From the NCBI RefSeq assembly GCF_003334815.1, contig NZ_QOWO01000039.1: DNA of 34,477 bases. One strand, given 5' to 3'. Source of the DNA: Escherichia coli. GTDB lineage: Bacteria; Pseudomonadota; Gammaproteobacteria; Enterobacterales; Enterobacteriaceae. Under the pieces are notes generated by a model. It did not search any database. It was given only the letters and a program-made list of their open reading frames with translations, and was not told the DNA's origin. The stretch's first letter is position 1. Each line of letters opens with the position of its first letter. A program made the translations under genes and the position numbers. Shown here one piece after another: positions 1 through 28,160 of this stretch.

Positions 1-211
1 ATCGACGATTGCTGGAAAGGCTGGGCCATACTCCTCCGGCAGAAGCAGAAAAAGCTTATTATGCTTCCATCGGAAACGATGATCTGGCAGCCTGAGTTCA
101 CAGATAAAACACTCTCCAGGAAACCCGGGGCGGTTCAGGAGGGCATCTTTAGTTACAAGCACCCAGACTAACCCTTGCCACAATAAACAGGCATGAACAC
201 TGACTGCTATT

Positions 212-245
212 GTAAGGCATTAACGGAGTCCGTATTGACGCTTAC
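212..245. repeat. IS66-family-like palindromic terminal repeat (gtaaggcattaacgg...ccgtattgacgcttac); orientation and parent element unresolved
   Basis: Its reverse complement begins gtaagcgtcaatacgg, matching the IS66 left end at 5142 (gtaagcgtcaacgggg) and the remnant right end at 8044-8077 (taagcgtcaatacggtgctccgttgacgcttac). Near-palindromic like the 8044-8077 end. Confidence 0.45.
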
Positions 246-279
246 GCTCAAGTCGCGACTAATACAACTAAATGAATGA

Positions 280-308
280 TTAACAGCTCAGCTAAACGGA
301 GCTGTTAA
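280..308 (-). terminator. Putative terminator hairpin downstream of lutC (perfect 10-bp inverted repeat ttaacagctc/gagctgttaa, 9-nt loop)
   Basis: Inverted repeat read directly; lies about 25 nt past the lutC stop on the minus strand; the U-tract after the stem is weak. Confidence 0.3.
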
Positions 309-331
309 TCGTATATACATACTAAAATGTA

Positions 332-1027
332 TTAGCAGTCATCAATAATCAAGTAAGTTGCATGTACTGGTCCATGCACACCAACAACTTTGATCAGTTC
401 TATATCTGCAGTAGAACTTGGGCCTCCAATCAGATTGATACAGGAAGGCAGTCGTTGTCCTTCCTGAGCCATTTCATGAAGTTTTTGCGCAAGCTGAGCC
501 ACTCGGGGGAGAATAGTGCTTTTGCGTAAAACAAATAATGATGCTTCAGGCAAAAGGCTTACTGAGCGCCCACGTTCTGGTGCGGAGAATAAGACAATGC
601 CTCCTGATTCTGTCAGCCCATACTCAGCGAAAACGACACCAGTTTTTGCCTTTTCAGCAAGATGGATATTTTCATCGCCCTTCTCCGGATCCCACAGAGC
701 AGCGTCCATTTCTTTTTGTAGCAATGGCGTAATCCCTGTATCGACCAGTCGTTGATCGTTGCTGATAATGACTGGCCCGGAACCGAACTTCCAACAGATG
801 TCTAAGGCTGTTGATGGTGCGTTCTCAGGCGACACCAGAACACACTCGGCAAGCATCACTTCCGAGGCAAATTTAATAAACGCCTCACAGCGTTGGTCTG
901 ATGTCAACTCTGTTAAACGTGTCGTAGCCAGCGTATTTACAGGCTCCGGCATTGCTTCGGGAATATGTCTTACTGGTCTGCCAAGCTTTCTGGCGATCGC
1001 AACGAGAAATTCCTCTCTGTTTTCCAT
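332..1027 (-). CDS. lutC: Lactate utilisation protein C (LutC/YkgG family)
   Basis: 231-aa ORF, last gene of a tightly spaced lutA-lutB-lutC arrangement; conserved C-terminal block ...AEYGLTESGG..LFS..ERGRS.SLLPE.SLF.LRKSTI.PR... resembles E. coli YkgG as recalled from memory. Confidence 0.85.
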   Translation of the reverse strand: MENREEFLVAIARKLGRPVRHIPEAMPEPVNTLATTRLTELTSDQRCEAFIKFASEVMLAECVLVSPENAPSTALDICWKFGSGPVIISNDQRLVDTGITPLLQKEMDAALWDPEKGDENIHLAEKAKTGVVFAEYGLTESGGIVLFSAPERGRSVSLLPEASLFVLRKSTILPRVAQLAQKLHEMAQEGQRLPSCINLIGGPSSTADIELIKVVGVHGPVHATYLIIDDC

Positions 1028-1030
1028 AAA

Positions 1031-2446
1031 TTACCCCTCCTTCTTATGTCGCTTGAACCAACTACGGAAGCTTTCTCCATCAGGTGATGGCAGGTCTCTG
1101 GCTTCAGTCCATTCTTTTATCGCTCCAACACTAATCGGCGTTTTTCCTTTCCTGATGAACAGACGGGCTGTTTTGGCCCCAGCAACCATACCTACCTTCC
1201 ACAACGCCGGATGGCTGTTTATGTAATTGAATGCTCTGGTTATACGGCGTTCCGTTAATGGTGTGATTTCAGACTCTGCCATAACCTGGCGATGTTTTTG
1301 TATTAGCGTTGCCAGAGGTATTTTTACAGGACATACCCCATTGCAGGCAGTGCACAATGAGCAGGCATAGGGTAAATCCTTAAAGTCTTCATATCCACCA
1401 AGCAATGGGGAAATAACCGCACCGATTGGCCCCGGGTAGATTGAACCATAACCATGCCCACCAATCTGACGATAAGCCGGGCAGGTATTAATGCAGGCAC
1501 CGCAGCGGATACATCGCAATACATCGCTGAATTCTGAGCCGAGAATCTCTGAACGCCCATTGTCAACAATAACGAGATGGAACTCTTCCGGACCATCAAC
1601 ATGTCCTTCTTCTCTGGGGCCTGTAAGCCAGGTGTTATAACCTGTCAGTCTCGCCCCGACAGCACTCCTTGCAAGCATGGTAATCAGAACATCCACCTCC
1701 TGGAATGTCGGAGCAATACGCTCCATACCCATAACAGCAATATGTGTTTTAGGTAATGTGGTGCACATCCGTGCGTTGCCTTCGTTTGTAACAAGGCAGA
1801 CTGACCCTGTTTCTGCAACGGCAAAGTTACACCCCGTTACGCCAACTTCAGCACTCAGAAAATCTTGTCTGATTTTCTCACGGATGAACAATGTCATTGC
1901 TTCTGGAGTTTCAGGCCCGTCATACCCCAGATGTTCATGTAAAACTCTGCGGATTTGATGGCGATCTTTATGTATTGCCGGCACAACCACATGCGATGGT
2001 GGCTCATGTGCTAGCTGAAGAATATATTCCCCAAGGTCCGTTTCAATCACGGGTATCCCGGCTTTCTGAAGAACGGCATTCATGCCAATTTCCTCAGTCA
2101 CCATTGATTTGGATTTAACAACCTTCCTGGCGTTTTTTTCTTTCGCCACCTTCAGTATGTAACTGGTTGCATCCTCTCTGGTACGGGCAAAATATACATG
2201 CCCGCCATTCGCAGTAACCTTTTCGGACAATTGATACAAATAAGCATCAAGATTTTCCAGAACATGCCGACGAATCTGTTCAGCTCGTGAACGCCATTCC
2301 TCCCAGTGTCCCAGTTCATCAACCATTTTCTGTCGATTAGTCCCTATGCGCTCCTGTGCGTTAGCCACAGCTTTTCGCATGATCGGGTCCTGAATCTGAA
2401 TACGGATACGCTCTTTAAACCTGATATCACTTGTTTTCAAAGACAT
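1031..2446 (-). CDS. lutB: Lactate utilisation protein B (LutB/YkgF family), 4Fe-4S iron-sulfur protein
   Basis: 471-aa ORF with ferredoxin-type cysteine motifs CIRCGACINTCP and CSLCTACNGVCP; 3-bp gap to lutC and 10-bp gap to lutA. Confidence 0.9.
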   Translation of the reverse strand: MSLKTSDIRFKERIRIQIQDPIMRKAVANAQERIGTNRQKMVDELGHWEEWRSRAEQIRRHVLENLDAYLYQLSEKVTANGGHVYFARTREDATSYILKVAKEKNARKVVKSKSMVTEEIGMNAVLQKAGIPVIETDLGEYILQLAHEPPSHVVVPAIHKDRHQIRRVLHEHLGYDGPETPEAMTLFIREKIRQDFLSAEVGVTGCNFAVAETGSVCLVTNEGNARMCTTLPKTHIAVMGMERIAPTFQEVDVLITMLARSAVGARLTGYNTWLTGPREEGHVDGPEEFHLVIVDNGRSEILGSEFSDVLRCIRCGACINTCPAYRQIGGHGYGSIYPGPIGAVISPLLGGYEDFKDLPYACSLCTACNGVCPVKIPLATLIQKHRQVMAESEITPLTERRITRAFNYINSHPALWKVGMVAGAKTARLFIRKGKTPISVGAIKEWTEARDLPSPDGESFRSWFKRHKKEG

Positions 2447-2456
2447 TCTGTTTACC

Positions 2457-3176
2457 TCATCTGTGCATCAGGACTTCAGCAATATGCATCACTTTTACAG
2501 GATGCCCTTCACGGTTAAGCCGACCGCCGATGTTTAGCAGGCAACTGGCGTCAGCCCCGATAAGAAAATCAGGTTTAACATCCATAATATGCCCGACTTT
2601 CTCTTTCACCATTTCACCAGAGATCTCCGCCATTTTTACAGAGAATGTGCCGCCAAACCCGCAGCACGTTTCCTGAGCGTGAAACGGCAGTAGCTCAAGC
2701 CCCTGTACATTCTCAAGTAGCAAAAGCGGCTCTCTGGTTACACCCAGCTTACGGGAAAGGCTGCAGGAGGGATGGTACACAGCGCGACCATTGAGTTTTG
2801 CCCCAACATCTGTGATGCCAAGATGATTTACTATAAATGATGTCAAATCATGCAGGCGTTCAGCCACTTTTTCAGCTCGTGCCGCCCACTCAGGTTCTTC
2901 ACTGAGATAGCGAGCGTAATTTTTTATCGTGTAAGTGCATGACCCGGCAGGAGATACTACCGGCCAGTCATTCTCTTCCAGCGAAGATATGAGATTTTTC
3001 ATGCCCGGGATGGCATCACGAACATAACCGCCATTTATCGCTGGCTGACCACAACATCCCTGCTTTTCGGGGAAATGGACATTGCAACCCAATTGCTCCA
3101 GTAACAGCACACTCTTTTGTGCCATCCGGGATTTAAACGCATCACCAATGCAGGTGACGAAAAAGTTAACATTCAC
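2457..3176 (-). CDS. lutA: Lactate utilisation protein A (LutA/YkgE family), cysteine-rich Fe-S oxidoreductase subunit
   Basis: 239-aa ORF; N-terminus MNVNFFVTCIGD... and CCG-type cysteine motifs (GCCGQP, CCGFGG) typical of YkgE/LutA; first of the three lut genes. Confidence 0.9.
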   Translation of the reverse strand: MNVNFFVTCIGDAFKSRMAQKSVLLLEQLGCNVHFPEKQGCCGQPAINGGYVRDAIPGMKNLISSLEENDWPVVSPAGSCTYTIKNYARYLSEEPEWAARAEKVAERLHDLTSFIVNHLGITDVGAKLNGRAVYHPSCSLSRKLGVTREPLLLLENVQGLELLPFHAQETCCGFGGTFSVKMAEISGEMVKEKVGHIMDVKPDFLIGADASCLLNIGGRLNREGHPVKVMHIAEVLMHR

Positions 3177-3225
3177 AGAAATTTCTCCTGTTGATTAATA
3201 TTCCACGTCCTTTTGTTGTTTTTTC

Positions 3226-4782
3226 TCAGGCCATGAACAGGTGGTAGACAAGGCCTACTTTCAGTCCAAGAATAACAATATAAGCAAAGCAGTACTTCAG
3301 TGTTCCTGACATGATTACGCTGCCCTGACCATCCATACGGGTGGCTGAAACAGCGATAGCAATACTCTGAGGAGAAATCATTTTGCCGCCTGTTGCGCCA
3401 GATGTATTTGCGGCAGCCAGCCAGAGCGGGTCCACATGCAATTTTTCAGCCGCAGTAGTCTGCAATTTACCAAACAGAATGTTGGAGTTTGTGTCACTAC
3501 CAGTAACAAATGTACCAAGAGCGCCGATAACCGGAGCAATGAAGAGGTAGGCCCCACCAGTCAGATCCACAAGGCTCTGTGCCAGAGTGCCAATCAACCC
3601 ACAGACATCCATTACCGTTGCCATGGCAACAATCGCAGAAATGGCAATAATGGAGTTTTTAAGTTGTTTTACCGTGCTGACAAATACGTTTAACAGGCAT
3701 GACAGGGATGCTTTCTGTATCAAGCCGCCAATAACACTGGCAATGATAATCAGAACACCGGGGGTTGCGATCCATTCAATTTTCATCGACAGATTGCTGC
3801 CGTTACTCAGAGAGAAGGTGAGTGACGAGGCAATCTGAGACACTGCACTTTTTATCGTCGGGAACAGTGGAGAGCAAAGCAGAATGAACAGAAAGATCAG
3901 AATGTAGATTGAGCACGCACGTAACAACGCCCCACGAGAGTATGAAAGTGCGCTGGCGCTATCTGCTGAACTCTCAATAAGAAATTCAGGTTCTGTTTTT
4001 TCTTTACGGTTTTTTGCCATAAAGACTATAACGATCAGACTGACAAGACTTCCTGCGAAAGCCGGGAGCTCTGCGCCAAGATTAACAGCCACCAGATACT
4101 GAGGTATCAATGTGCTAATACCGCACATCAGGGTAATTAACCCTACGCCTCGTATAGCTTTCATACCTCCACCGATAATCGTGACGATAACGAAGGGGAG
4201 CAGAATGTTGAACAGTGCCAGCTGAAGAATAATCGTCCCGCTGAGTGTGGTTACAGGTAAATTAACTTGTTCAGCAAGCACGGAGACAGGTATACCGACT
4301 GCCCCAAACGCTGTAGGGACTGTATTAGCAACCAGTGATGCAATCGCTGCTTTTAGTGGGTTAAAGCCCAGTGCAATGAGTATACCTATGGGGATTGCTA
4401 CCGCTGTACCGTATCCGGCGGCCGCCTCAAGAAATCCGCCAAAACACCATGAGATAAGAAGAACCTGGATGCGTTTATCGTCACTAACGCTCGCCAGAAC
4501 ATTTCTCAGAATATCCATGCTTTTTGTCGCATTCATCAGGTTATAGCTGTAAATGGCAGCAAGGATGACAATCACAATCGGCCACAAACCTTTGATTGCG
4601 CCGTATACCACAGCAGATCCCATATCCATAACTGGCGTCTGCCAGAAAACCCCTCCAAGGATTAGCGTGAGCAGGAGAGTGCTAAGCACAGAATAGTGTA
4701 TGGGCATTTTGACTTTCAGAATCAAAATGATCATCGCCAGAAGGGGGGTAAGTCCCAGTAAAAAAAGCAGGTAATCGTGCAT
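3226..4782 (-). CDS. lctP: L-lactate permease (LctP family), polytopic inner-membrane transporter
   Basis: 518-aa highly hydrophobic ORF with multiple predicted transmembrane segments, directly upstream of lutABC on the same strand (49-bp gap); RBS aaggaa before the ATG. Confidence 0.8.
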   Translation of the reverse strand: MHDYLLFLLGLTPLLAMIILILKVKMPIHYSVLSTLLLTLILGGVFWQTPVMDMGSAVVYGAIKGLWPIVIVILAAIYSYNLMNATKSMDILRNVLASVSDDKRIQVLLISWCFGGFLEAAAGYGTAVAIPIGILIALGFNPLKAAIASLVANTVPTAFGAVGIPVSVLAEQVNLPVTTLSGTIILQLALFNILLPFVIVTIIGGGMKAIRGVGLITLMCGISTLIPQYLVAVNLGAELPAFAGSLVSLIVIVFMAKNRKEKTEPEFLIESSADSASALSYSRGALLRACSIYILIFLFILLCSPLFPTIKSAVSQIASSLTFSLSNGSNLSMKIEWIATPGVLIIIASVIGGLIQKASLSCLLNVFVSTVKQLKNSIIAISAIVAMATVMDVCGLIGTLAQSLVDLTGGAYLFIAPVIGALGTFVTGSDTNSNILFGKLQTTAAEKLHVDPLWLAAANTSGATGGKMISPQSIAIAVSATRMDGQGSVIMSGTLKYCFAYIVILGLKVGLVYHLFMA

Positions 4783-5360
4783 GTCATTTCCTTAAACGAA
4801 AACAAAGTCAGCATCATTACTGTGGTTATTGATAGTTTCCACGCCCTGTCGGACGAGAGTGTTTATTTATCAGGGGGAGAATGAGTATCGTCTCCAAAAT
4901 TGGGATGTTCTTATAAAGTATTTTTTAGTTTAAAAAATATAGCTGAATCGTTTCATTGTTATCTTCCATGAATAAATGTTATGAAATAATACTTTTTGGG
5001 TATTTTTTGTTTATGCGTGTAACACTTGTGTGCTATCCCGATATAACCTTAAGACTGGAGTTGCAACTGGAGCTCGTCGAAAATCAACGCCCAAATCCTC
5101 GACAAATGGAGAAAGAGAATGAGCAATATCACCAGGAATAGGTAAGCGTCAACGGGGATGAAATACGGGGATTACCGGAGTCAGAGCGTCTTGCCGTCAG
5201 GCAGCAGCGAAGCAAAGTGTTACTGACGTCACTGCATGAATGGATGGTGGAGAAGAATGGTACGCTGTCGAAAAAATGTAAGCGTCGTCTGAGTACCGTC
5301 TGGTCCCGAATCCAGGATCCTGTAACTTAAGCACCCACTTATTTTGCAGGTGGACACCTC

Positions 5361-5744
5361 ATGCGCGCTAAAGAAAGACTTCCCCGGAAACACTATTCCC
5401 CTGAATTCAAAATGGAACTGGTCAGGCTGGCTCTTGAAGAAGAAGGCAGTATTGCCGCACTGGCCCGGAAACATGACGTCAATGATAACCTGCTCTTTAA
5501 ATGGATAAGGCTCTGGCAGCGTGAAGGGCGGGTCTGTCGGCCCCGAAAAAACTCATCGTCGCTTCCTGCCCTGATACCCGTGCAGCTTCAGGCGGGCTCT
5601 TCTCTCCCAACCTTCGAACTACCATCCTGCTCTCCTCCCGCTACCTGCCACATAAAATGTCGGGGAGGAGAAATAACACTGACTCATCCCTCTGCTGAAC
5701 TCATGAGCACTGTCCTGCGCGAACTGATGCGGGGGCCTGTATGA
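5361..5744 (+). CDS. tnpA: IS66-family accessory protein OrfA (TnpA)
   Basis: 127-aa ORF, first in the IS66-type three-gene arrangement; its stop overlaps the orfB start (ATGA). Confidence 0.8.
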   Translation: MRAKERLPRKHYSPEFKMELVRLALEEEGSIAALARKHDVNDNLLFKWIRLWQREGRVCRPRKNSSSLPALIPVQLQAGSSLPTFELPSCSPPATCHIKCRGGEITLTHPSAELMSTVLRELMRGPV

Positions 5745-6088
5745 TAAATCTTCCCGCAGGCACAAAAATCTGGCTGGTTGCCGGTATCACCGATATGCGC
5801 AACGGCTTCAATGGCCTCGCCGCAAAGGTGCAGACCGCGCTGAAAGATGACCCGATGTCCGGCCACGTCTTCATCTTCCGGGGACGCAGCGGCAGTCAGG
5901 TAAAACTGCTCTGGTCCACCGGCGATGGTCTGTGCCTGCTGACAAAGCGACTAGAACGTGGTCGCTTCGCCTGGCCCTCAGCCCGCGATGGCAAAGTGTT
6001 CCTGACGCCGGCGCAACTGGCGATGCTGATGGAAGGTATCGACTGGCGACAGCCAAAGCGGTTACTGACATCCCTGACCATGTTGTAG
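5741..6088 (+). CDS. tnpB: IS66-family accessory protein OrfB (TnpB)
   Basis: 115-aa ORF translationally coupled to orfA; precedes the transposase gene. Confidence 0.8.
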   Translation: MINLPAGTKIWLVAGITDMRNGFNGLAAKVQTALKDDPMSGHVFIFRGRSGSQVKLLWSTGDGLCLLTKRLERGRFAWPSARDGKVFLTPAQLAMLMEGIDWRQPKRLLTSLTML

Positions 6089-6137
6089 CGCTCTTTATCC
6101 TGGTTGTCGCAGAATAAGCCTGGTAAAATACAGGCTT

Positions 6138-7672
6138 ATGAACGACACCTCTTCTGACGACATCCTTCTGCTGAAACAGCGCCTGGCCGAACAGGAAGCG
6201 TTGATCCACGCCCTGCAGGAAAAGCTGAGCAACCGGGAACGCGAAATAGACCATCTGCAGGCGCAACTGGATAAGCTGCGCCGGATGAACTTCGGCAGTC
6301 GTTCCGAAAAGGTATCCCGCGTATCGCGCAAATGGAAGCTGACCTGAACCTGCTGCAGCAGGAAAGCGATACGCTGACCGGCCGGGTGGATGACCCGGCA
6401 GTGCAGCGCCCGCTGCGTCAGACCCGCACCCGCAAACCGTTCCCTGAGTCACTCCCACGGGATGAGAAGCGGCTGCTGCCGACTGAGCCGTGTTGCCCGG
6501 AGTGCGGTGGTTCGCTGAGTTACCTGGGTGAGGATGCCGCCGAACAGCTGGAGCTGATGCGCAGCGCCTTCCGGGTTATCCGGACAGTCCGTGAAAAGCA
6601 TGCCTGCCGTCGGTGCGATCGCATCGTTCAGGCCCCGGCTCCTTCGCGCCCCATCGAACGGGGGATCGCCGGACCGGGGCTGCTGGCCCGAGTGCTGACC
6701 TCAAAGTATGCAGAGCACATACCGCTGTATCGCCAGTCGGAGATCTATGCCCGCCAGGGTGTAGTGTTGAGTCGTTCTGTACTGTCGGGCTGGGTGGATG
6801 CGTGTTGTCGTCTGCTGGCACCGCTGGATGAAGCCCTTCAGCACTATGTCCTGACCGACGGCAAACTCCATGCTGACGATATGCCTGTCCCGGTGCTGTT
6901 GCCGGGCAATAAGAAGACGAAGACCGGGCGCTTATGGACGTACGTTCGAGACGACCGCAACGCCGGATCAGCGCTGGCCCCCGCAGTGTGGTTCGCTTAC
7001 AGCCCGGACAGAAAAGGTATCCACCCTCAGACCCATCTTGCAGGCTTCAGTGGCGTACTGCAGGCTGATGCCTACGCCGGGTTCAACGAGCTCTACCGCG
7101 ACGGCCATATAAAGGAAGCCGCGTGCTGGGCCCATGCCCGCCGAAAAATCCACGATGTTCACGTCCGTACCCCGTCAGCCCTGACGGAGGAGGCGCTGAA
7201 ACGGATCGGCGAGCTGTATGCCATCGAGTCGGAGCTCAGAGGTAAAAGAGCAGAGGAACGGCAGGCAGTCCGGCACCAAAAAGTGCTGCCGCTGCTGGCG
7301 TCACTGGAGGGGTGGCTGCGGGAGAAACAGAAAACCCTCTCAAGGCACTCAGAACTGGCGAAGGCGTTCGGGTATGCGCTGAACCAGTGGCCGGCGCTGA
7401 CCCGCTATGCAGAAGATGGCTGGGTGGAGGTGGATAATAACATTGCCGAAAACGCCCTACGACTGGTCAGTCTGGGGAGAAAAAACTGGCTGTTCTTCGG
7501 CTCGGATCATGGTGGTGAGCGCGGTGCGTCACTGTACAGTCTTATCGGGACGTGCAAATTAAACGGCGTGGATCCGGAACGCTATCTGCATCATGTACTT
7601 GATGTCATCGCCGACTGGCCTGTGAACCGGGTGGGTGCTCTGCTCCCGTGGCGGGTTACTCTGCCTGCCTGA
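6138..7672 (+). pseudogene. tnpC: IS66-family transposase (TnpC) split by a frameshift near 6330-6347
   Basis: Track ORFs 6138..6347 (N-terminal coiled-coil/leucine-zipper-like segment) and 6332..7672 (zinc-finger-like CxxC...CxxC, catalytic core, C-terminal ...LLPWRVTLPA) overlap in different frames and together make one IS66-type transposase. Confidence 0.75.
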
Positions 7673-7713
7673 CCAGCTTCACTTCGTCAATACGGTTCTC
7701 ACTGCACGCTTAC

Positions 7714-8047
7714 GAAAAAATCCAGACTGGGCGAAGCGTTCAGCTATGTACTGAATCAGTGGGATGCCCTCTGTTATTACAGTGATGACGGTCTGGCGGA
7801 GGCGGATAATAATGCTGCGGAAAGAGCGCTTCGTGCAGTCTGTCTCGGAAAGAAAAACTTTATGTTCTTTGGCAGCGATCACGGCGGCGAGCGTGGAGCA
7901 CTGTTGTACGGGCTGATCGGCACCTGCCGTCTGAACGGTATCGATCCGGAAGCGTATCTGCGCCATATCCTGAGCGTACTGCCAGAATGGCCTTCCAACC
8001 GAGTTGATGAACTCCTGCCATGGAACGTAGTACTCACCAATAAATAA
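7714..8047 (+). pseudogene. Truncated IS66-family transposase, C-terminal ~110 codons only
   Basis: In-frame translation of 7714-8047 matches the C-terminal region of IS66 TnpC; there is no N-terminal part and no orfA/orfB upstream. Confidence 0.7.
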
Positions 8048-8077
8048 GCGTCAATACGGTGCTCCGTTGACGCTTAC
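7714..8077 (+). mobile_element. 3' remnant of a second IS66-family element: partial transposase C-terminus plus palindromic right terminal repeat
   Basis: Starts immediately after the first element's right end; encodes ...FMFFGSDHGGERGALLYGLIGTCRLNGIDPEAYLRHILSVLPEWPSNRVDELLPWNVVLTNK, diverged from the intact copy's C-terminus; ends in a repeat whose reverse complement is gtaagcgtcaacgg... Confidence 0.7.
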
Positions 8078-8125
8078 AGTTTTTTCAGAAGACGGCAAAG
8101 TAGAGATGGCTGGTTCAGGTTCAGA

Positions 8126-8270
8126 GCATGAGTTTCCCCGGTGTGACGGGCATGGCGGGGCGGATTTTGCAGATACAAAAGACGTAAAAAAACCGACTGG
8201 TGAGGCCGGCTTTTTTACTGTTACGCTACAAAGTTGATGACTCTGACCAGAAAAGAGCTGTCTATAACTG
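8126..8270. repeat. Repeat family copy A (~145 bp) with a 19-codon ORF (8128-8187, MSFPGVTGMAGRILQIQKT) and a terminator-like hairpin
   Basis: Aligned by eye to copy C over about 145 bp from catgagt...cccggt...ggcatgg.gggcggatt through the hairpin to gaaaag...tct. Confidence 0.6.
8186..8216. terminator. Bidirectional intrinsic-terminator-like hairpin (A7-ccgac-tggtgag-gccggc-T6) in repeat copy A
   Basis: GC stem flanked by an A-run on one side and a T-run on the other, so it can terminate on either strand. Confidence 0.5.
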
Positions 8271-8554
8271 ACGCTAAAAATGATAATTTGTTCTACCTGA
8301 TTAATGCAACATGCCATAAGTTTACGGGAAAGGCTGACCACCTGATATTGTTGCAAAATACGAAAGTCGTCAAAATCGCGGTGGGGAGCTTGAGGCTGTA
8401 AGCTGAAAGCGTTTGTGAAAGCCCCGGGAGATTGTTCTATCAATCAACCAAGGGCTCTACTGTAATGCCTAGACAACATTATAGTAGCCCGCTGACGTCC
8501 TCCACGCCAGAGGGAGCTTGCTACGTACAGCTTGTCGTTACTCAGAAGTAATAA

Positions 8555-8625
8555 ATGTAAAAAAACCGACTGATGAGGTCGGTTTTCTTACTGTTCCGTT
8601 ACAGAGTTGGTGGCCCTGACTGGAG
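8555..8625. repeat. Repeat family copy B (partial: hairpin plus conserved downstream segment only)
   Basis: gtaaaaaaaccgactgatgaggtcggttttcttactgttccgttacagagttggtgg matches the terminator-proximal part of copies A and C; the small-ORF part is absent. Confidence 0.5.
8559..8589. terminator. Terminator-like hairpin in repeat copy B (A7-ccgac-tgatgag-gtcgg-TTTTCTT)
   Basis: Perfect 5-bp GC-rich stem with flanking A-run and T-rich run. Confidence 0.4.
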
Positions 8626-8745
8626 GAAATCTCTTTTCAGCTAACGTTCTTATAATAGTGTTCTGTTCATTTGATAACAACCACCCTTGTAATCCGCAGG
8701 TTAGCACTGTCTGGCGACACTTCTGTCGTGATGACGGTAACCAGA

Positions 8746-8892
8746 ACATGAGTCTTCCCGGTATAACAGGCATGGTGGGGCGGATTTGCAGAAACAACAG
8801 ATGTAAAAAAACCGACTGGTGAGGTCGGCTTTTTTACTGTTCCGCTACAGAGTTGGTTGCTCTGGGCGGGAAAAGACAGTCTGTATCTAACA
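8746..8892. repeat. Repeat family copy C (~145 bp) with a 24-codon ORF (8748-8822, MSLPGITGMVGRICRNNRCKKTDW) and a terminator-like hairpin
   Basis: Same unit as copy A; the small ORF shares its first 13 codons with copy A, then diverges through a 1-nt indel. Confidence 0.6.
8805..8835. terminator. Bidirectional intrinsic-terminator-like hairpin (A7-ccgac-tggtgag-gtcgg-c-T6) in repeat copy C
   Basis: Perfect stem with A-run and T-run on either side. Confidence 0.5.
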
Positions 8893-8953
8893 TAATCAAT
8901 TCTATGCTTTGTCCCACACTATGTCAAAAATCCTGCTAATCAAAAAAGAGATC

Positions 8954-9130
8954 TCACGTTAAAAATTTGTACCCTTCTTTAACTTCCAGTGCCTGCTCCT
9001 TTGACTCAAACATCAGTCTTGTTTTCCCGGGAACACCCCATGAAATGTATTCAACATCTATCCACCATTTTCCATATTCTTCATATGGCCCGGATATTAC
9101 TTTTTTGACAAAGGCGTCTACCAGATTCAT
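8954..9130 (-). CDS. Hypothetical small protein (58 aa, MNLVDAFVKKVISGPYEEYGKWW...)
   Basis: Internal ATG of track ORF 8954..9238, preceded by aaggaaaaaaca-ATG (RBS-like); the upstream part of the track ORF has no RBS and looks non-coding. Confidence 0.4.
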   Translation of the reverse strand: MNLVDAFVKKVISGPYEEYGKWWIDVEYISWGVPGKTRLMFESKEQALEVKEGYKFLT

Positions 9131-9515
9131 TGTTTTTTCCTTTTTGTGTTGAAAATAATTAATGCCAGAGCACAGCGAAAATAATGAATGCGCTGGCTGT
9201 GATAATTGCGATTTTCTCCCATATGATATTTTTCTCATGGGGGTTTCTACGGAGATTATTTCTTCGCATTGAGATACCGGTATTCATGTTTTATCTTGGA
9301 CTTTTGTTTTGTTGTCTGTCTGGCAGGCTGTTCTGCGCCCGTTTGTGACAAGGTTAGCTTATGGGGTTAAATGGTCACGGACATCATGCGGACGGTTCCC
9401 TGTCACATGCCATCTGGTTTTTTCATTCAAATTGAGAGATATTGCTAAGTTGAGTCGCTTGCGATAGTGGACTCCTGTTTGTAAGTGAGTGCCATTGTTT
9501 ATTTCATGAAGAGGA

Positions 9516-9731
9516 TTGATTATGAGCATGCCTCCTGCGATAGCTAATACTTTCTTGTTTGAAATGATGAAGAGTAAATCAAAAGACGTTACACTTGCTG
9601 CGATCTATGCATTAGGTGAAGGCCGGTGTCAGGCGGAGAACATTACTCGTGAATTACATAGATTGAGTCAAAGTGATGATATGGAAATAAAAATTGCTGC
9701 GATTAAAGCACTTGGTCGAATTTATCGGTAA
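9516..9731 (+). CDS. Hypothetical small protein with two HEAT/PBS-lyase-like repeats
   Basis: 71-aa ORF with tandem AAIYALGEG / AAIKALGRI motifs; aagagg-like RBS upstream; the true start may be one of the nearby in-frame Met codons. Confidence 0.4.
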   Translation: MIMSMPPAIANTFLFEMMKSKSKDVTLAAIYALGEGRCQAENITRELHRLSQSDDMEIKIAAIKALGRIYR

Positions 9732-9761
9732 CGGCATAAGTTATCTGTTGTAATGAACAAA

Positions 9762-9783
9762 AGCCGGCTCATTTGAACCGGCT
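9762..9783 (-). terminator. Putative terminator hairpin just after the excA stop (agccgg-N10-ccggct, then a U-rich tract on the minus strand)
   Basis: 6-bp GC stem about 20 nt past the minus-strand excA stop, followed on that strand by uuuguucauu. Confidence 0.4.
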
Positions 9784-9802
9784 GTTATGGAGGGAGCTTA
9801 TC

Positions 9803-10465
9803 TTAAAATACTTCGGCTACAGGCATGCCTGCAATCTGCTCCCACTCCTTACGCTTTTCCTGAATCAGGCGAGGAAAGTCGACAGGGTAATCATATCCTC
9901 GACTTGCCATTGCGTGCATGGTGTTTGATGCTGTTTCTGGATGAGCACACCATGATGGAACAGGAACCATTGGCAGATTGATGTATTTCGTATGAATTTC
10001 CAGTTTTTTGTCGTCTGTTACAGTACGAGTGAAATTATGAATGTCAAAACCGATAACATCCATAATGTTGCCTGGATAGATACGGACATACAACATTGTG
10101 CCATTTTTAAGGTCAATGCCGAAATAAGCTCCCTGGGTTAAAGATAATCCCTCATACCCCTTCTCTGGAGAGTAGAAGCCTGACTCTTTTATTGTTTGTA
10201 CAACTTTTCTTATTTTTTCTCTCCTTGTTTTTGCACGTGAGTACATCCATATGCCTGGCGCAAGTAATAAGAACCAACTACCGAAAGTGACAACATAATC
10301 TTCGACCTTATTTCCGAAATAACGATCAGAACATAGCATTTCGGTAAAGCCTAATGCGCAGAACAGAAAAAAAGGTATTCCAAGAAAGAAATAAGCTTTT
10401 CTTAATACATAATAAAATAGCCACCAGGTTGGAAATCTGTCTGTTGTTTCTTTTTTAGCTTTCAT
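9803..10465 (-). CDS. excA: Inner-membrane protein at the ExcA (entry-exclusion) position of IncI-type transfer regions
   Basis: 220-aa ORF with two N-terminal hydrophobic segments, last gene of the minus-strand tra block directly after the DotA-like gene; assignment is positional. Confidence 0.45.
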
Positions 10466-10535
10466 ATAATGCCTCCCCTCGTACTATCTATTATTTTAAT
10501 GCCGATGGGGAGGTTGTGCAATATTTATATTGATA

Positions 10536-12704
10536 TTATCCTTTTATTCCGTCCTTGTCGTCACTTCCTTTTGTATTATCTTTAAGACGATCTGTTTTCA
10601 TTCCAGGAGTATGTCGGATATTGCGACTTCCTCCAATAAATATTTCTTTAACAGAATTTGCCATGCTGCCAAGCGTGTTGGCTCCATCACTTCCCCCTAG
10701 GAAGTTAATAACATGATCAGGTAGGTAGGCCTGAAGGGCAAATATGGCAGCTACAGTGGTTGTACAAATTCTGGCGTATATCAGCAAGAAACCAGCAAGA
10801 CTGAAAATACCGGTCAGCGAATTGAACTGTACGTTAACCAGGGCAGCGCCAAATAATGCATTCAGTATTGTGCCTACGGCGATGATGGCTACAGAAGCAA
10901 AGAAAAAACCAAAGACCATGATGGGCGGCCTTATCATACTATCAATTAAGTATATATAACCGTAGGCTGCCCGACTTCCTCTGTCTTCTGATGTCCCGAG
11001 ATGTGTTGCAGCCCACAGCGGCCCGGCGGTACATCCTATTAATACGCTGACTATCCAGTTCCCGATGCCTGTCATCCAGAAAATAAACGGAATGAATGGC
11101 AGGTAAATTGATAAGGAAAATCCAGCACAGAACATCAGGAACAAAAGAAAATAAACAGGTGGTGCAAGTGCTTCAAACAGCGCGGTAAGCATCGAAGCGG
11201 CACCTGTTAGTGAGTTAAAGAATTTTACAAGAATTGAATCTTTGCCACCGGCAACGACAACTCTGGCCGTTGTATATATAGTCCAGATTCCTTCTGCACT
11301 TACCATTGTTATATCTCCGATATTTTTCATTTTTATCAGAGGATTAATTTGAGCACTGGTTGTGCCTGTGCCACTTGTTTCCGTTGCAATCCTGTTAGTG
11401 AGACTAACAAGGGGGCCCATAATTTCAGACAAGGCAGATTTCGGATCTTGTGCATTTGCCATGCGTTGTTCACTGGATGATACTACTGTGCCCAGCGGTG
11501 GCGTATAGGAGGAATTCTGCAGTTGCGTCCTATAGGCACTCATGACCGCACTGAATAAGTCAGTATCACCAACTTCTCCCAGTGATGACATTGAAGTTAC
11601 AGCTGGAGCTCTGTCAGCCAGCTCTGCCAGACGCTGGTTAGCAGTGGCAAAGGTCTGATACCATGCGCCAAGCGTTACCCACCCGTAGGTTGTGAGATAA
11701 GATTTAAGAGCCTCTTTTCTGGATTGCTCTCCGTTATCAGTGGGTAGCGATTTTTGCACAGCACGTTCGTATTCGTCGGCTGCTTTCTGAATTCGTGTCT
11801 CGATATCCGGCAGTGTTCCGTTGCCAGAATTTCTTTTTTCCAGAAATGTTGTCACAAACTCACTGGCAGCGTTGTCCATGTCGCTAATCATATTATCCAT
11901 GGCTGCACGTTGTGCTGAGATAACACCGCTGTACTCGTTTTTACTGAAGGGATTAAAGAATTTTCCAATCGTCGACTGATCTGTTGTTCCGTTTCCTTCT
12001 ACTGACAGGCTGGCTGTACCACAGATACCGCTGCCATTGGATACCGTGACAGTGTAATTACCACTGGCGGTTTTAGCTGATTCTGTCATCAGTGAAGTCG
12101 AGGATTTGGCGGTCTGATTAAAATCATTTAGTCCTGCGTTAACCGCATACTTACATAGTTCCATTTCAAAAATGCCACGCGCAGCTGTTCGTGTGGATGC
12201 CTGAACTGGCTGTACAGTCATTGAATAACCATTTGCGATATTATCAGCGGCAACTTGCACCATCACATTGGCGGACCCAACCCCCATTATCGATGCGCCC
12301 CATAACATAATGAGCTGAGCGAGACTCCAGCCATTTCCGGTAGGAACGATCATCAGAAAGCCTGCGACGAAACTCAGTATGCCGACAATATCGCGCCCGA
12401 CGCTGAATACCTGTCCCTGATGCCCCGAACGCACAACATGGCGGATACTAATGAAGATACACCAGACGATAGCAAGTACGGCAATGATATTGTTGAACAC
12501 CCAGAACATGCTTCCGATCAGGGTGGGGTCGCTGGTTGACAGTGGATTGGTGACCACATCACCGAATATCGTGACCAGCGCCTGGCGGGACAGATCGTCA
12601 GGATTGGTGGCGGCAGACACAATATCCTGATAGGTCACTGAAGCCATTGCCGGCAGTGAGGATATAGCAAGGCCTGCACAGAGTGCGCGAAGTAAAATTT
12701 TCAC
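10536..12704 (-). CDS. traY: DotA/TraY-like polytopic integral membrane protein of a type IVB secretion/conjugation system
   Basis: Large ORF with signal-peptide-like N-terminus and many hydrophobic segments. Start set at the GTG at 12704 (ggag-N6-GTG giving MKILLRALCAGLAISSLPAMA); the track ORF runs up to 12773 without an RBS. Confidence 0.6.
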   Translation of the reverse strand: MKILLRALCAGLAISSLPAMASVTYQDIVSAATNPDDLSRQALVTIFGDVVTNPLSTSDPTLIGSMFWVFNNIIAVLAIVWCIFISIRHVVRSGHQGQVFSVGRDIVGILSFVAGFLMIVPTGNGWSLAQLIMLWGASIMGVGSANVMVQVAADNIANGYSMTVQPVQASTRTAARGIFEMELCKYAVNAGLNDFNQTAKSSTSLMTESAKTASGNYTVTVSNGSGICGTASLSVEGNGTTDQSTIGKFFNPFSKNEYSGVISAQRAAMDNMISDMDNAASEFVTTFLEKRNSGNGTLPDIETRIQKAADEYERAVQKSLPTDNGEQSRKEALKSYLTTYGWVTLGAWYQTFATANQRLAELADRAPAVTSMSSLGEVGDTDLFSAVMSAYRTQLQNSSYTPPLGTVVSSSEQRMANAQDPKSALSEIMGPLVSLTNRIATETSGTGTTSAQINPLIKMKNIGDITMVSAEGIWTIYTTARVVVAGGKDSILVKFFNSLTGAASMLTALFEALAPPVYFLLFLMFCAGFSLSIYLPFIPFIFWMTGIGNWIVSVLIGCTAGPLWAATHLGTSEDRGSRAAYGYIYLIDSMIRPPIMVFGFFFASVAIIAVGTILNALFGAALVNVQFNSLTGIFSLAGFLLIYARICTTTVAAIFALQAYLPDHVINFLGGSDGANTLGSMANSVKEIFIGGSRNIRHTPGMKTDRLKDNTKGSDDKDGIKG

Positions 12705-12800
12705 AGTAACTCCGGAATAGAATTGCGTATGGGCAAAGGCCACACAGGATTTAATTAAGGGGGATGGCGACATGCCAGTGGTACTGGCATCTGGACGTGA

Positions 12801-13385
12801 TCAGTATTGTTTACTGGTTACGGCAATTAATGTGGCATTGCGCCAGCCATTGCGGTAGTTCAGAAAATCACGGAAAGTCCCCTGCTCGGGTTCGCTGACT
12901 TTTCGTTCATGCAACTGCCAGAGGCGGTATGTAACTATCAGAGCTCTGGAAGCACAAAGAGCGACGCCTGACAGAATCAACACAAGAGTGCTGATGGCGC
13001 GTACCTGTGTCATCAAAGGTAATGAGGAGGCGGCAAAGAGCATACCGCTGAGGAATAAAGCGATGGCCAGCAGACTCCAGCAGCATAACCGCCATACTGT
13101 TCTGCGCCGGCGGAAACGACGATCCAGGTCGTCTACTGACATATGGCTGGCCTGCAGAGCTTCTTCCCACGAGAGGCAGAGTTGCGCCTTTTTATTATTT
13201 ACCTGACGAAATTTTTCCAGCCTGCTTTTTTGTTGCTTCAGCATATGCTGTACAGAATTCGTTATCAGGCGAGTCTCCATCAGAGGAACAAAAATGTTAA
13301 TAATCCTCCGGGTGGCTATGCGGGTTATGGATAGTGATTTTTTGACGTTTTTCGTCTGGTCTGAATTTTCCGGTAACTTATTCAT
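12801..13385 (-). CDS. Membrane protein at the TraX position of the tra block
   Basis: 194-aa ORF with C-terminal hydrophobic helices; co-directional and tightly packed with neighbours. Confidence 0.5.
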   Translation of the reverse strand: MNKLPENSDQTKNVKKSLSITRIATRRIINIFVPLMETRLITNSVQHMLKQQKSRLEKFRQVNNKKAQLCLSWEEALQASHMSVDDLDRRFRRRRTVWRLCCWSLLAIALFLSGMLFAASSLPLMTQVRAISTLVLILSGVALCASRALIVTYRLWQLHERKVSEPEQGTFRDFLNYRNGWRNATLIAVTSKQY

Positions 13386-13413
13386 TGTTTCAGTCCTGTT
13401 CTGACGTCAGCTT

Positions 13414-14616
13414 TCAACGTGCGTTTGCCTGATTGATTGTTTTCTCAAGGCTACCGAGTTGTTTTTCATAATACTGGCGGGCAGTCAGAGCCAGTTGCTG
13501 GCCAGAGATAACATTACCCTGGCGGATCTGTTCTTTCAGATCGTTCAGCTGCCAGTTCATTTGCGCAGTGATTCTTACCAGTTCACGGAGCAGGTTATCC
13601 CCCTGCATTTCCTGTAAATCCACCAGGTATGCTGTGTTGGCGTAGCGCCGGCCAGCCTCAAAAGCTTCAAACTCACGGGTACTCATATATCCCCGTGCTT
13701 TTGCTTCTGGTGAAGCCACTTGGTCGAAGTAAGCGGCCGCTGAGTCTGACTGCAGTGTTTCAGCCAGTGCTTTACGTGTGCTTTCATTAGGCGTGCTGTC
13801 AGCAATCAACGTCAGTTGGGGATTCGACGCAGAATCAATGATGCCGTTGTATTCGTTCTGGAGTCCGACGTAGGTTCGCCCACTCTGGGTATTCACTTCT
13901 CCTTTACCCAGAGCACGACCGGCAGAGGGGCGGGAAGTGTTTTTCATGTAAGCAGTCGCTGCATCTATTTGCTTCTGATCCCATGTCAGTGCCGCAGGTG
14001 TGTCCGCTGTACCTGCGCCGTGGTAAATCGAGCGTACCTGACTGTCTCCACCTGGTATTTCGCCCACAGAAGGACAAACGGCGGTTCCTCCAAAACGTGC
14101 ATATTCTGCTTCTGTACAGTAACTGGCGTGTATGGCCGCGCCATCATAAGCTTCCCGCACGGGAGAGTTTGCTGCGCTGGCCAGACGGTCGCGGATGCTA
14201 CGGTTGCTCACACCGCCACCTTTACTGAGTTTTGAGGCTGCGGATGCTGAGGCACTTTTGCTTACTGTTGCAATCCCTGATGCGGATTCACTGCAGATGG
14301 AGTCTGGCACGGTGAAGCTTTTCCGTGCCTCCTCGAGGCGCTGAGTTTCATTACTGAAAATCATCTGCTGACGTGTCGCCTGTCCGTTCTGGGCAATGAC
14401 ACTTGCCAGCTTTTCAGAGTTCTGATTGATAGCGGTACCCGTGGCTGTCTGGGTACTCAGTATGTCACTCAGCACACCTTTGATGGCCTCCATTCTGGGG
14501 ACGACCTGCTGTTCAACGGGACGGCTGGCGACGACGGTGACTGAATAAGCATGAGCCTGGTATGCCGTTCCATTCAGGATAGCTATAAGGGCTGCGAGTA
14601 ATGTTTTTCTTTGCAT
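13414..14616 (-). CDS. Secreted/periplasmic protein at the TraW position
   Basis: 400-aa ORF with N-terminal signal peptide MQRKTLLAALIAILNGTAYQAHA; overlaps the upstream gene by 34 nt. Confidence 0.5.
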   Translation of the reverse strand: MQRKTLLAALIAILNGTAYQAHAYSVTVVASRPVEQQVVPRMEAIKGVLSDILSTQTATGTAINQNSEKLASVIAQNGQATRQQMIFSNETQRLEEARKSFTVPDSICSESASGIATVSKSASASAASKLSKGGGVSNRSIRDRLASAANSPVREAYDGAAIHASYCTEAEYARFGGTAVCPSVGEIPGGDSQVRSIYHGAGTADTPAALTWDQKQIDAATAYMKNTSRPSAGRALGKGEVNTQSGRTYVGLQNEYNGIIDSASNPQLTLIADSTPNESTRKALAETLQSDSAAAYFDQVASPEAKARGYMSTREFEAFEAGRRYANTAYLVDLQEMQGDNLLRELVRITAQMNWQLNDLKEQIRQGNVISGQQLALTARQYYEKQLGSLEKTINQANAR

Positions 14617-27300: not shown

Positions 27301-28160
27301 GTCATCAGCACCGGAAGGCCGGTGGCTTCGTGCAGGGAGGCGGCAGTGGCATAGCCCTCGGCAAACAGCACCGGCTGGCCGTTGCGCGGTGTACCCAGCG
27401 CAAACCAGTTACCGGTTTTCTCGGAATCTTTCAGGATGCGGGCATCCTTCCCGCCGGTGACCGGAATGCGCTGATAGGAGCGTATTGCGCCGTTACGGTT
27501 GCGGAAAGGAATAACGAGCTCATTTTTGTCGTTTATTCGCACCCCCGGCGCAGCCTGAATGCCTTTCCGGGTCAGGTATTCATGTGCCGTGGCCTGCGGC
27601 CATTTGTTGACATAGCGGCGGGCATAAGCAGCCTGTCGGTTGTACTGTGCTTTCAGTTCCCGCTCAGCGTCCTCCCTGCGTTGCAGCGAATGCGCTTTCA
27701 GGTGAAGCCTTGCGCGGGGATCTGTCTGCTCTCCGCCGGAGAAGGTCCAGTTGACCGGCGAATCATCCGCGCTGCGATAATCCCTGTACCAGCCGGCAGG
27801 TCTGCCGTCCAGGAAGCCGCGATATGCGCCACTTTTTTGCCCGTTTTTGTCATCGGTGGTCGGAACCCGGTGGATTTTACCGTCCATGGCCGGCAGTTCT
27901 TTCAGAACCAGTCCGGCATTTTCCAGTACCTGGGCAAACTCGGTGACCGGATCACTGCCGTTCATGGAGACTTCCTGCGGTCGGGGCAGCCAGCGGTCCA
28001 GCATGGACAGGTCCGCCCCCGGGCGGGCAAACCAGAGTTTGTGCTCTTTATCCCAGAGGACGGGCGTGTGCCCGTTCATCGGGGGATGTGCTTTTTTGAG
28101 ATCTTCTATTTCATCTGCAGGCACGGCAAGCCAGGTGCGGTAGCGGGATACAGACGGCAT
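24393..28160 (-). CDS. sogL: Sog-like conjugative DNA primase (N-terminal primase/Toprim-like domain, long acidic P/E/S/T-rich linker, large C-terminal domain)
   Basis: Start set at the ATG at 28160 (aggag RBS), giving about 1255 aa; the track ORF extends to a GTG at 28196. About 350 aa of low-complexity acidic linker in the middle. Confidence 0.7.
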   Translation of the reverse strand: MPSVSRYRTWLAVPADEIEDLKKAHPPMNGHTPVLWDKEHKLWFARPGADLSMLDRWLPRPQEVSMNGSDPVTEFAQVLENAGLVLKELPAMDGKIHRVPTTDDKNGQKSGAYRGFLDGRPAGWYRDYRSADDSPVNWTFSGGEQTDPRARLHLKAHSLQRREDAERELKAQYNRQAAYARRYVNKWPQATAHEYLTRKGIQAAPGVRINDKNELVIPFRNRNGAIRSYQRIPVTGGKDARILKDSEKTGNWFALGTPRNGQPVLFAEGYATAASLHEATGLPVLMTVDAGNMIAVAEDARQKWKQSPFIFCADNDHARQVNKGIVSATKAAELTGGSVIFPAFTDAEKSQGLTDFNDLDASRGRAAFQHVINAQLEHIGVSTPNSNTPEIREALVIGNLVFTPVHTEEKTMTPTEYPETSPDTGHSHDQGPSLPSATQQEQPTASSSNIADETLSFTSHATENNGKDERHPDNVQAQTESSVVQDSPAESPASPESTTASAPDEPAHPAEPPEKVVSVATDKDWREFEAELSQPEKNELQQESGTSPEIPAPAAAPAAPEDSPSSETMNESAEPSPSPDAVKEEMTVMTEPDDKQSTGISPDTPREEAVSHVTEDIPLQPEPFLPESDGPEEYEDYSAYQELMNNENPEHLQENSDMPSQPDTGPVQADESELQATTATIEPAVRDEPTPQQPVQSTSPSDNTSSFLDKARGLFTRKKTDSQAHENSDPTPSAETTTTPPIPDSIVYAPERSDAPISLNMDEILKELDWEKRADRTVLYKLDGKPAFIDRVNRLEMVNGASNDDRSVLAALAVATKFYGGVIELTGSDAFKQKAMQLIIEHNIDVRMKLPDQRAELEKLRKEMAVSKDAVVTHQPTPELNRNTPEQPAVPDPVQEKEATQSPASPVAPEASTVSTASAPSPAEPGKTADVAPDEEPPGKLRPGESVTAVLHNFGRAEYAPGKGESFFVELKNRSGSKLYWGEQLESLVKNHQKGDVVTLTLQNREQFILPGEQKARFRNKWSMESVTNGISVSHDNPDKGQRIQAIPVETFMKVAAQISQGWPEEMKALRMPENVGSHLFIGEDRHPVSAPQNANQVTEITSAAPDKLTPVLGSVDKDTRELNLLLVQSADEHLQGVVRLNGTLYPALATPSADNSQLVINALTDKGLRFAGYGEAVNHDADSTNRPAPELMQFHLKTREEPLFAAVYTPEKQPDALYRNLGFEQSWQQWSNSQKPEDRQEKTLHQDLSHSPGR

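Follow-up and report, generated by a model that had tools for sequence, protein, structure and literature searches.

Introduction

Lactate is a major cross-fed and host-derived source of carbon and electrons in the gut. The core ykgEFG locus of Escherichia coli comes without its own transporter, and its phenotype is only subtle: in strain MP1, YkgEFG is a respiratory L-lactate dehydrogenase that affects fitness only during nitrate respiration with L-lactate (PMC9701030). In Helicobacter pylori, the homologues hp0137-0139 and lctP are needed for L-lactate use, and carriers of the LctP family move D-lactate, L-lactate and glycolate (PMC4117512). Here we describe a transporter-linked relative of these systems, an lctP-lutABC operon at positions 332-4782 (minus strand) of a 34,477-nucleotide stretch of E. 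coli DNA (contig NZ_QOWO01000039.1, assembly GCF_003334815.1; hereafter the window). Our reading, to which we assign a probability of about 0.85, is that the operon is an accessory one that couples L-lactate oxidation to a permease, has its own control region and is carried as cargo by a composite transposon of the insertion sequence (IS) family IS66 that has moved at least twice.

Two related arrangements have been reported. In uropathogenic E. coli (UPEC) of sequence type (ST) 127 and several other sequence types, lutABC, a lutP permease gene, a fragment of a peptide ATP-binding cassette (ABC) substrate-binding protein (SBP) gene and hsdMSR form an accessory island region (PMC9769692). Its gene set and neighbours (integrase, tRNA, type I restriction-modification genes, lutCBA, lctP and peptide-ABC SBP fragment) are those of the chromosomal copies considered below, and it appears to be the same module as the operon studied here; the report describes a chromosomal island, with a suggested prophage origin, and no plasmid copies, IS66 boundaries or transposition. 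The IncY phage-plasmid pFec10 of commensal E. coli carries a lactate cluster of LctP, Dld and ykgEFG (PMC7984374). Like the window, it has a plasmid-borne lactate permease gene adjoining ykgEFG-type genes; unlike the window, it includes dld, has a P1-like backbone and encodes a YkgE 94% identical to that of K-12, which makes it a different lineage in a different vehicle. Because of this 94% identity, the pFec10 cluster is of the core or Citrobacter type.

As regards the vehicle, IS66-family elements such as ISCro1 and ISEc8 resemble the unit described here in their GTAAGCG...CGCTTAC termini, their tnpA-tnpB-tnpC genes and their 8-bp target duplications. Composite transposons of the Tn5/Tn10 type likewise carry cargo between two IS elements and use the outer ends; unlike them, our unit is bounded by different IS66-family members, has two alternative right ends (7713 and 8077) and carries catabolic rather than resistance genes. 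In the literature on ykgEFG or lutABC in connection with plasmids, IS66, pO113 or Shiga toxin, we found no description of this IS66-bounded unit or of its transposition. The operon genes are routinely annotated and of a known kind, and only their mobile packaging seems to be undescribed.

An accessory operon for putative L-lactate import and oxidation

The operon consists of four intact, separate open reading frames (ORFs), tightly spaced in the order lctP-lutA/ykgE-lutB/ykgF-lutC/ykgG, with intergenic gaps of 49, 10 and 3 bp and a Shine-Dalgarno sequence ahead of every gene. The first gene, lctP (3226-4782, minus strand; 518 amino acids, aa), encodes an LctP-family lactate permease that scores 407.5 bits against TIGR00795 (cut-off 341.15) over residues 2-511, as expected of a member of Transporter Classification family 2.A.14. 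An original prediction, made from the bare sequence, had put such a permease at the head of a four-gene unit spanning 332-4782, and the ORFs do lie at exactly those limits. The same prediction spoke of a permease gene fused to the lactate operon; a stop codon and the 49-bp spacer separate lctP from lutA, and the gene-fusion reading was rejected.

The three downstream genes, all on the minus strand, are adjacent and co-oriented and encode LutA-, LutB- and LutC-type subunits in the order A-B-C. LutA (2457-3176; 239 aa, GTG start) is the cysteine-rich subunit, with CCG motifs at residues 41 and 171, as in YkgE; its NCBIfam matches were sub-threshold only, to fused or related enzymes. LutB (1031-2446; 471 aa) scores 723.6 bits against TIGR00273, the LutB/LldF equivalog (cut-off 444.8), and its two 4Fe-4S motifs of the CxxCxxCxxxC form, CIRCGACINTC at residue 312 and CSLCTACNGVC at residue 362, are at the same positions as in YkgF. 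LutC (332-1027; 231 aa) contains a LUD domain (PF02589, E 7e-28) and has a complete C-terminus, ending in ...LIIDDC before the stop codon.

By analogy with these homologues, LctP would import lactate, and LutABC, a three-subunit Fe-S enzyme, would oxidise L-lactate to pyruvate and pass the electrons into respiration. The main substrate could instead be D-lactate, glycolate or another 2-hydroxy acid, or LctP could act mainly as an exporter. LctP falls far below the equivalog cut-offs of both LldP (269.6 vs 918 bits) and GlcA (241.5 vs 1121 bits) and matches the broad LctP subfamily only; it therefore belongs to a subfamily distinct from LldP and GlcA, and the range of substrates moved by LctP-family carriers (PMC4117512) leaves room for such a role, as does the identity of only 65-83% between LutABC and E. 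coli YkgEFG. Set against this, each of the characterised LutABC/LldEFG/YkgEFG enzymes cited oxidises L-lactate, LutB strongly passes the L-lactate-oxidation equivalog, and the linkage of permease and enzyme is conserved over many genera. We give the alternative substrates or an export role a small chance, and L-lactate import and respiratory oxidation remain the function inferred for the operon.

All four genes are, by their substitution pattern, under strong purifying selection: dN/dS (non-synonymous over synonymous substitution rate) is 0.03-0.11 throughout (lutA 0.03-0.05, lutB about 0.06, lutC 0.08-0.11) at dS values of 0.12-0.51 between alleles, and no internal stops were found. These figures bear on the possibility that the unit is decaying, functionless cargo hitch-hiking with insertion sequences. 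The operon does sit in an IS graveyard, with an IS3-family insertion, a truncated IS66 end, a frameshifted tnpC and pseudogene fragments around it, and many B2-lineage chromosomes retain nothing but a 522-bp remnant of lctP. The low dN/dS values, the intactness of the four ORFs in each full-length allele examined, and the retention of catalytic Cys motifs, ribosome-binding sites and upstream motifs all argue for a working operon, and we consider decay very improbable indeed.

The operon is not the core locus of the species. In K-12, ykgEFG (b0306-b0308) has rclR upstream and no adjoining permease gene, as the original prediction had stated, and this permease-less rclR-ykgEFG form was present in 5072 of 5426 complete E. 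coli genomes (at least 80% coverage). The full lctP-linked four-gene unit was found in 205 of the same 5426, with fragments in 858 and 76 places on plasmids; since the linked unit is accessory and the permease-less locus the species norm, lctP-lutABC is not the ordinary chromosomal state of E. coli. The window and K-12 operons are alike in their three subunits, the order of these and the conservation of all Cys motifs. They differ in that the core locus has rclR upstream and no permease gene, and the window proteins are only about 77, 83 and 65% identical to K-12 YkgE, YkgF and YkgG (LutA 76.6% over 239/239 residues; LutC 64.5%), as far from them as the Edwardsiella or Pectobacterium genes are. 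K-12 YkgEFG itself clusters with the Citrobacter proteins, at 94% aa identity. A recent duplication of the core locus was rejected on the grounds that the DNA identity is only about 70-72%. These comparisons indicate that the operon is an accessory, xenologous second copy. With it, the host would have a second L-lactate route, equipped with a transporter of its own, in addition to the core lldPRD and the permease-less ykgEFG.

Upstream of lctP lies what is probably a control region (4783-5010, minus strand). In an alignment of five alleles, with coding dS up to 0.5, non-coding motifs at 4811-4822, 4910-4925, 4942-4954 and 4974-4982 were invariant, and the sequence around them was diverged or replaced between alleles. 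The motif at 4910-4925 reads AAAAATACTTTATAAG in gene orientation, and GAAACGATTCAGC is also among the invariant motifs in that orientation. We regard these motifs as probable promoter or operator elements of a regulator. By eye, no convincing CRP or FNR site was seen upstream of lctP, a motif scan for the two not having been run. The motifs of the mobile lineage were searched for upstream of lctP in other genera and were absent there.

The operon is cargo of an IS66-bounded unit that appears to have transposed twice

The window belongs to an IncI1 plasmid, and the mobile unit that contains the operon is 11.4-11.8 kb long. In its uninterrupted form it begins at the left end of an ISCro1 element about 3.7 kb upstream of window position 1. 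From there to window 8077 it measures 11,761 bp, a version common to IncI1 plasmids and to the F-type plasmid p3RM8082 (99.6% identity); an 11,397-bp version, with its right boundary at window 7713, is found in the IncFIA/FIC plasmid pMB7355_2. Identity of the unit across the IncI1, IncF (p3RM8082) and IncFIA/FIC backbones is 99.6-99.8%. The outer termini are of the GTAAGCG...CGCTTAC form: the left inverted repeat (IRL) of ISCro1 begins GTAAGCGC, and right inverted repeats (IRRs) ending in CGCTTAC lie at both 7713 and 8077. The right ends share GTAAGCG and the subterminal ACCGTATTGA motif with the IRR of ISCro1, so recognition by one transposase is plausible.

In the IncI1 plasmids, the 11,761-bp unit is flanked on both sides by the 8-bp sequence AGTTTTTT, as read from the junctions in IncI1 plasmid L005 and in the window. 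The right copy is at window 8078-8085 and the left copy lies upstream of the window, beside the ISCro1 IRL. In pMB7355_2 the flanking 8-mer is TATTCCAC, again on both sides, and the IRR at 7713 serves as the right end. Empty sites were reconstructed as 600-bp sequences by joining the flanks with one copy of the 8-mer, and were then matched to plasmids. The IncI site with a single AGTTTTTT was continuous in 866 plasmids (at least 80% query coverage), with 99.7-99.8% identity in ColIb-P9, and the IncF site with a single TATTCCAC matched 2308 plasmids; the reconstructed sites were continuous at 99.7-100%. There are thus IS66-family elements at both ends, an 8-bp duplication around the whole unit and an uninterrupted target. 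This points firmly to two independent transpositions into conjugative plasmids, one into the IncI1 backbone of the window itself and one into an IncFIA/FIC backbone. The transposon would be bounded on the left by ISCro1 and on the right by either of two nested IS66-family ends, each move producing an 8-bp target duplication.

The original prediction was of a self-contained, transferable lactate-utilisation cassette. The description as transferable is supported because of the two independent insertions with their 8-bp duplications and empty sites, and the description as self-contained because transporter, enzyme and own control region are all carried; what moved was the 11.4-11.8-kb unit, not the 4.45-kb block between the nearest IS66 ends that had been envisaged. 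The transposon-specific junction (window 154-334) occurs in exactly six plasmids of PLSDB, from E. coli and E. fergusonii, all of them conjugative. ISCro1 tnpABC are annotated as intact in mip270_04, pRHB26-C03_2 and pMB7355_2. No intact transposase remains in the window copy: ISCro1 tnpC is broken up by an IS3-family element and the inner tnpC carries a frameshift, so that this copy is probably no longer autonomously mobile.

A chromosomal copy looks like the precursor of the transposon. In the chromosome of strain 88-3493 (locus L093, 7884-14496), a DUF6882 gene, lutCBA, lctP and an uninterrupted mini-IS66 follow one another, without ISCro1 and without the inner IS66. Next to this copy are the remnant of an autotransporter and a cdiB-cdiA locus for contact-dependent inhibition, and its homology to the plasmid begins exactly at the ISCro1 end.

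Observations that weigh against a self-contained, IS66-mobilised module

Several findings weigh against our reading. The left end of the transposon lies outside the window, and its position is taken from plasmids 100% identical over the shared sequence. The unit holds no regulator gene, and the sigma-70-like site predicted by a promoter scan at 5013-4986 comes from a scanned region where promoter-like sites are fewer than the shuffle mean and not above chance; because of this count, such sites are no evidence of a promoter. The substrate and stereospecificity are deduced from homologues 65-83% identical or more distant. In mouse colitis models, ykgEFG mutants of E. coli MP1 had no fitness defect (PMC9701030), and for this reason the benefit of the operon may be small or niche-specific. 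In p3RM8082 no 8-bp duplication surrounds the unit; 764 bp of the hok/mok/sok region flank it instead as a direct duplication with 98.6% identity (L001, NZ_CP043827.1, 10417-11180 and 22941-23704), so not every move was a simple transposition. One possibility is that this duplication arose by recombination between two copies at different sites. Finally, the bare operon sits in contexts without IS66 (a thrW island, pO113 and Salmonella IncF plasmids), which makes IS66 just one vehicle among several.

The last two findings are also those to be expected if the IS66 association were incidental, that is, if the unit did not transpose and had spread only passively, through conjugation and through homologous recombination at flanks held in common, for instance IS copies or hok/sok: p3RM8082 has a hok/sok direct duplication in place of an 8-bp one, and the bare operon occurs in unrelated flanks. 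What speaks against such a history is that two independent insertions show perfect 8-bp duplications exactly at IS66-type termini, each with a matching empty site, and for each event an exact 8-mer match at a fixed position has a chance probability of about 1 in 65,000. On this sequence evidence an incidental association is largely refuted already, and we hold it to be quite improbable. Movement as an IS66-family composite transposon, at least in the IncI1 and IncFIA/FIC cases, is the reading that we retain.

The gene order is common among Enterobacterales chromosomes

The original prediction proposed a survey of ykgEFG/lutABC loci across Enterobacterales. The survey bore out the accessory status of the linked unit in the host species, and it did not bear out an unusual gene order, which is chromosomal in many genera. 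In a scan with LctP (one genome per species), LctP orthologues of 65-79% aa identity immediately followed by lutA, lutB and lutC on the same strand were found in many genera: Edwardsiella, Samsonia, Pectobacterium, Dickeya, Mixta, Kosakonia, Serratia, Proteus, Budvicia, Pragia, Leminorella and Limnobaculum, and also Sutterella. The lctP-lutABC order is thus an ordinary chromosomal one in many Enterobacterales. The cj0076c-cj0073c genes of Campylobacter jejuni are also a chromosomal lctP-lutABC operon, and hp0137-0141 of H. pylori have the adjacent form. The operons of Edwardsiella, Pectobacterium, Proteus and Sutterella (lctP-lutABC, or lldP-lldEFG) share the four genes, their order and their strand with the window; they differ from it as fixed chromosomal loci that lack the upstream motifs of the mobile lineage. 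In Edwardsiella, Pectobacterium and Proteus, lctP has no dedicated regulator beside it, and its neighbours vary by genus.

In Citrobacter spp. (L013-L017 and similar loci), lctP is divergent from lutABC, and LutABC is 94% identical in aa sequence to K-12 YkgEF. Because of this identity, the E. coli core locus looks like a Citrobacter-type locus minus its permease, which suggests that core ykgEFG lost an ancestral adjacent permease gene.

No sampled species was closer to the window than 79% for LctP or 85% for LutB, except Escherichia sp. (97%), protein databases not having been searched; at these identities no sampled species qualifies as the donor. The peptide-ABC SBP fragment was followed up as a clue to the donor by tblastx against all fetched loci and gave nothing outside Escherichia sp. 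MOD1. The operon is a xenologue that circulates in islands and plasmids of Escherichia and Salmonella as several diverged alleles.

Other vehicles of the operon and its possible significance

The bare module (window about 335-5141, at least 99% identity) is present in a chromosomal thrW island that has no IS66, together with an integrase gene, tRNA-Thr, proA and type I restriction-modification genes, and also in other islands; island-type chromosomal copies are more than 99% identical to window 335-5141. Diverged alleles match window positions about 330-4831 only, on pO113 between espP and sab (90% nucleotide identity) and on Salmonella IncF plasmids between IS21 and IS3 (93% nucleotide identity). 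On one side, homology between contexts ends at the lutC stop codon. The lctP-lutA junction occurs in 62 of 72,556 PLSDB plasmids, 61 of these 62 being conjugative, and many of the plasmids that bear it are large and come from Shiga toxin-producing E. coli (STEC) of serotypes such as O91:H21, O22:H8, O104:H21 and O178:H19, with humans, cattle and beef as the sources of isolation.

About 650 complete E. coli genomes (ST131, Nissle 1917 and clone D i2 among them; many B2) keep only a 522-bp internal fragment of lctP, at 91% identity, between transposase remnants. In ST131 strain 4993 this remnant lies in a sat-iha pathogenicity island (L086, 7003-7512). The fragment is the relic of a former operon copy.

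A transporter-linked xenologue on conjugative plasmids, pO113-type STEC virulence plasmids and tRNA-associated islands could plausibly be a trait of niche adaptation. A further-reaching proposal is that the unit is a currently active, unnamed catabolic transposon that carries a self-sufficient L-lactate respiration module from one conjugative plasmid to another, of IncI and IncF type, in E. coli and E. fergusonii and that, with diverged alleles fixed on pO113-type plasmids of STEC negative for the enterocyte effacement locus (LEE), the module would give a measurable colonisation advantage in lactate-rich guts, ruminant or inflamed. We put this forward tentatively, as a doubtful though possible extension. 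If it is true, lactate catabolism would join the sugar or tetrathionate modules found on plasmids as a comparable plasmid-borne fitness trait. The unit is also a clean natural case of an IS66-family composite transposon with a catabolic operon, having two datable insertions and a putative chromosomal precursor. Operon type and transposon type are both standard, and the gain is incremental, consisting of cataloguing and a testable fitness hypothesis.

Insertion sequences around the operon

The original prediction had placed IS66 ends on both sides of the operon. The 11-mer GTAAGCGTCAA does occur three times in the window, at 235-245 (minus), 5142-5152 (plus) and 8067-8077 (minus), against 0.01 occurrences expected by chance, and it is identical to both ends of the mini-IS66 described below. 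On the lutC side, no more is left of the IS66 sequence than a terminal remnant (154-245, about 92 bp at most), found by the 11-mer and by end alignment, with its IS66-type right end ttgacgcttac (235-245) facing the operon; positions 1-137 belong to an IS3-family element, not to IS66. Between the two, positions 138-153 are the tail of a 3' fragment of a type I hsdR gene, since hsdR matches of 84-93% identity end at about 139-153. A reading of the left flank (window positions below 335) as a diverged form of the chromosomal hsdR-lutC spacer was rejected, no homology between the two being detected even with a word size of 7.

Positions 1-137 are the right end of a 1310-bp IS3-family element, a 100% match to the IS3-family copy in locus L002. 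In the ECOR 3 plasmid RCS85_pI (L088), two 1310-bp IS3-family copies split sequence that is continuous in IncI1 plasmid L005, with junction overlaps of 3-4 bp, which indicates that the copy at 1-137 is a recent insertion into the transposon. The two copies in RCS85_pI are identical and inverted (L088, 1840-3149 and 4691-6000), one in ISCro1 tnpC and one 195 bp past the lutC stop codon; the pair brackets the DUF6882 gene and forms a potential secondary composite element. Upstream of the window, the uninterrupted relatives have the DUF6882 gene and then a complete ISCro1.

On the lctP side, a fragment at 5119-5141 (plus strand; annotated as such in L002, L003 and L087) is cut by the mini-IS66. 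It runs on rightward in the chromosomal island copies, and homology of the window to chromosomes ends at 5141. The mini-IS66 is an internally deleted element in two parts, delimited by its ends. Its left part (5142-5277, plus strand) comprises an IRL, GTAAGCGTCAACGG, and a 3' fragment of tnpC, and its right part (7714-8077, plus strand) carries the IRR ...TTGACGCTTAC, which ends at 8077 and is the right end of the transposon in IncI1. A 2436-bp IS66-family element of complete length (5278-7713, plus strand) has inserted between the two parts, with an 8-bp duplication, GAAAAAAT, at 5270-5277 and 7714-7721; in the chromosome of 88-3493 the mini-IS66 is unbroken, with 5142-5277 joined directly to 7722-8077. 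The inner element carries the ORFs of tnpA (5361-5744, plus) and tnpB (5741-6088, plus) and a tnpC (6138-7672, plus) that annotation and translation show to be frameshifted near 6332-6347.

The IRL of the mini-IS66 supplies an outward-facing TTGACG which, with GATATT 16 bp downstream, makes up a sigma-70-like hybrid site directed toward lctP (5152-5125, minus strand). This is a consensus match only, in a region where counts of such sites are not above chance.

Plasmid backbone

The window is 99.99% identical to the ECOR 3 plasmid RCS85_pI over positions 1-14086, and from position 138 on it matches an IncI1-type plasmid of E. coli mip270_04 over 27.9 kb with 100% identity. Positions 9803-34477 are an IncI1-type transfer region on the minus strand, with excA, traY, traX, traW, traV, traU, traT, traR, traQ, traP, traO, traN and a gene for a large LPD7-domain protein; this region is 100% identical to that of the mip270_04 plasmid up to position 28000, the limit of the comparison. 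The transposon lies between excA and a pnd/hok-like locus that adjoins trbA.

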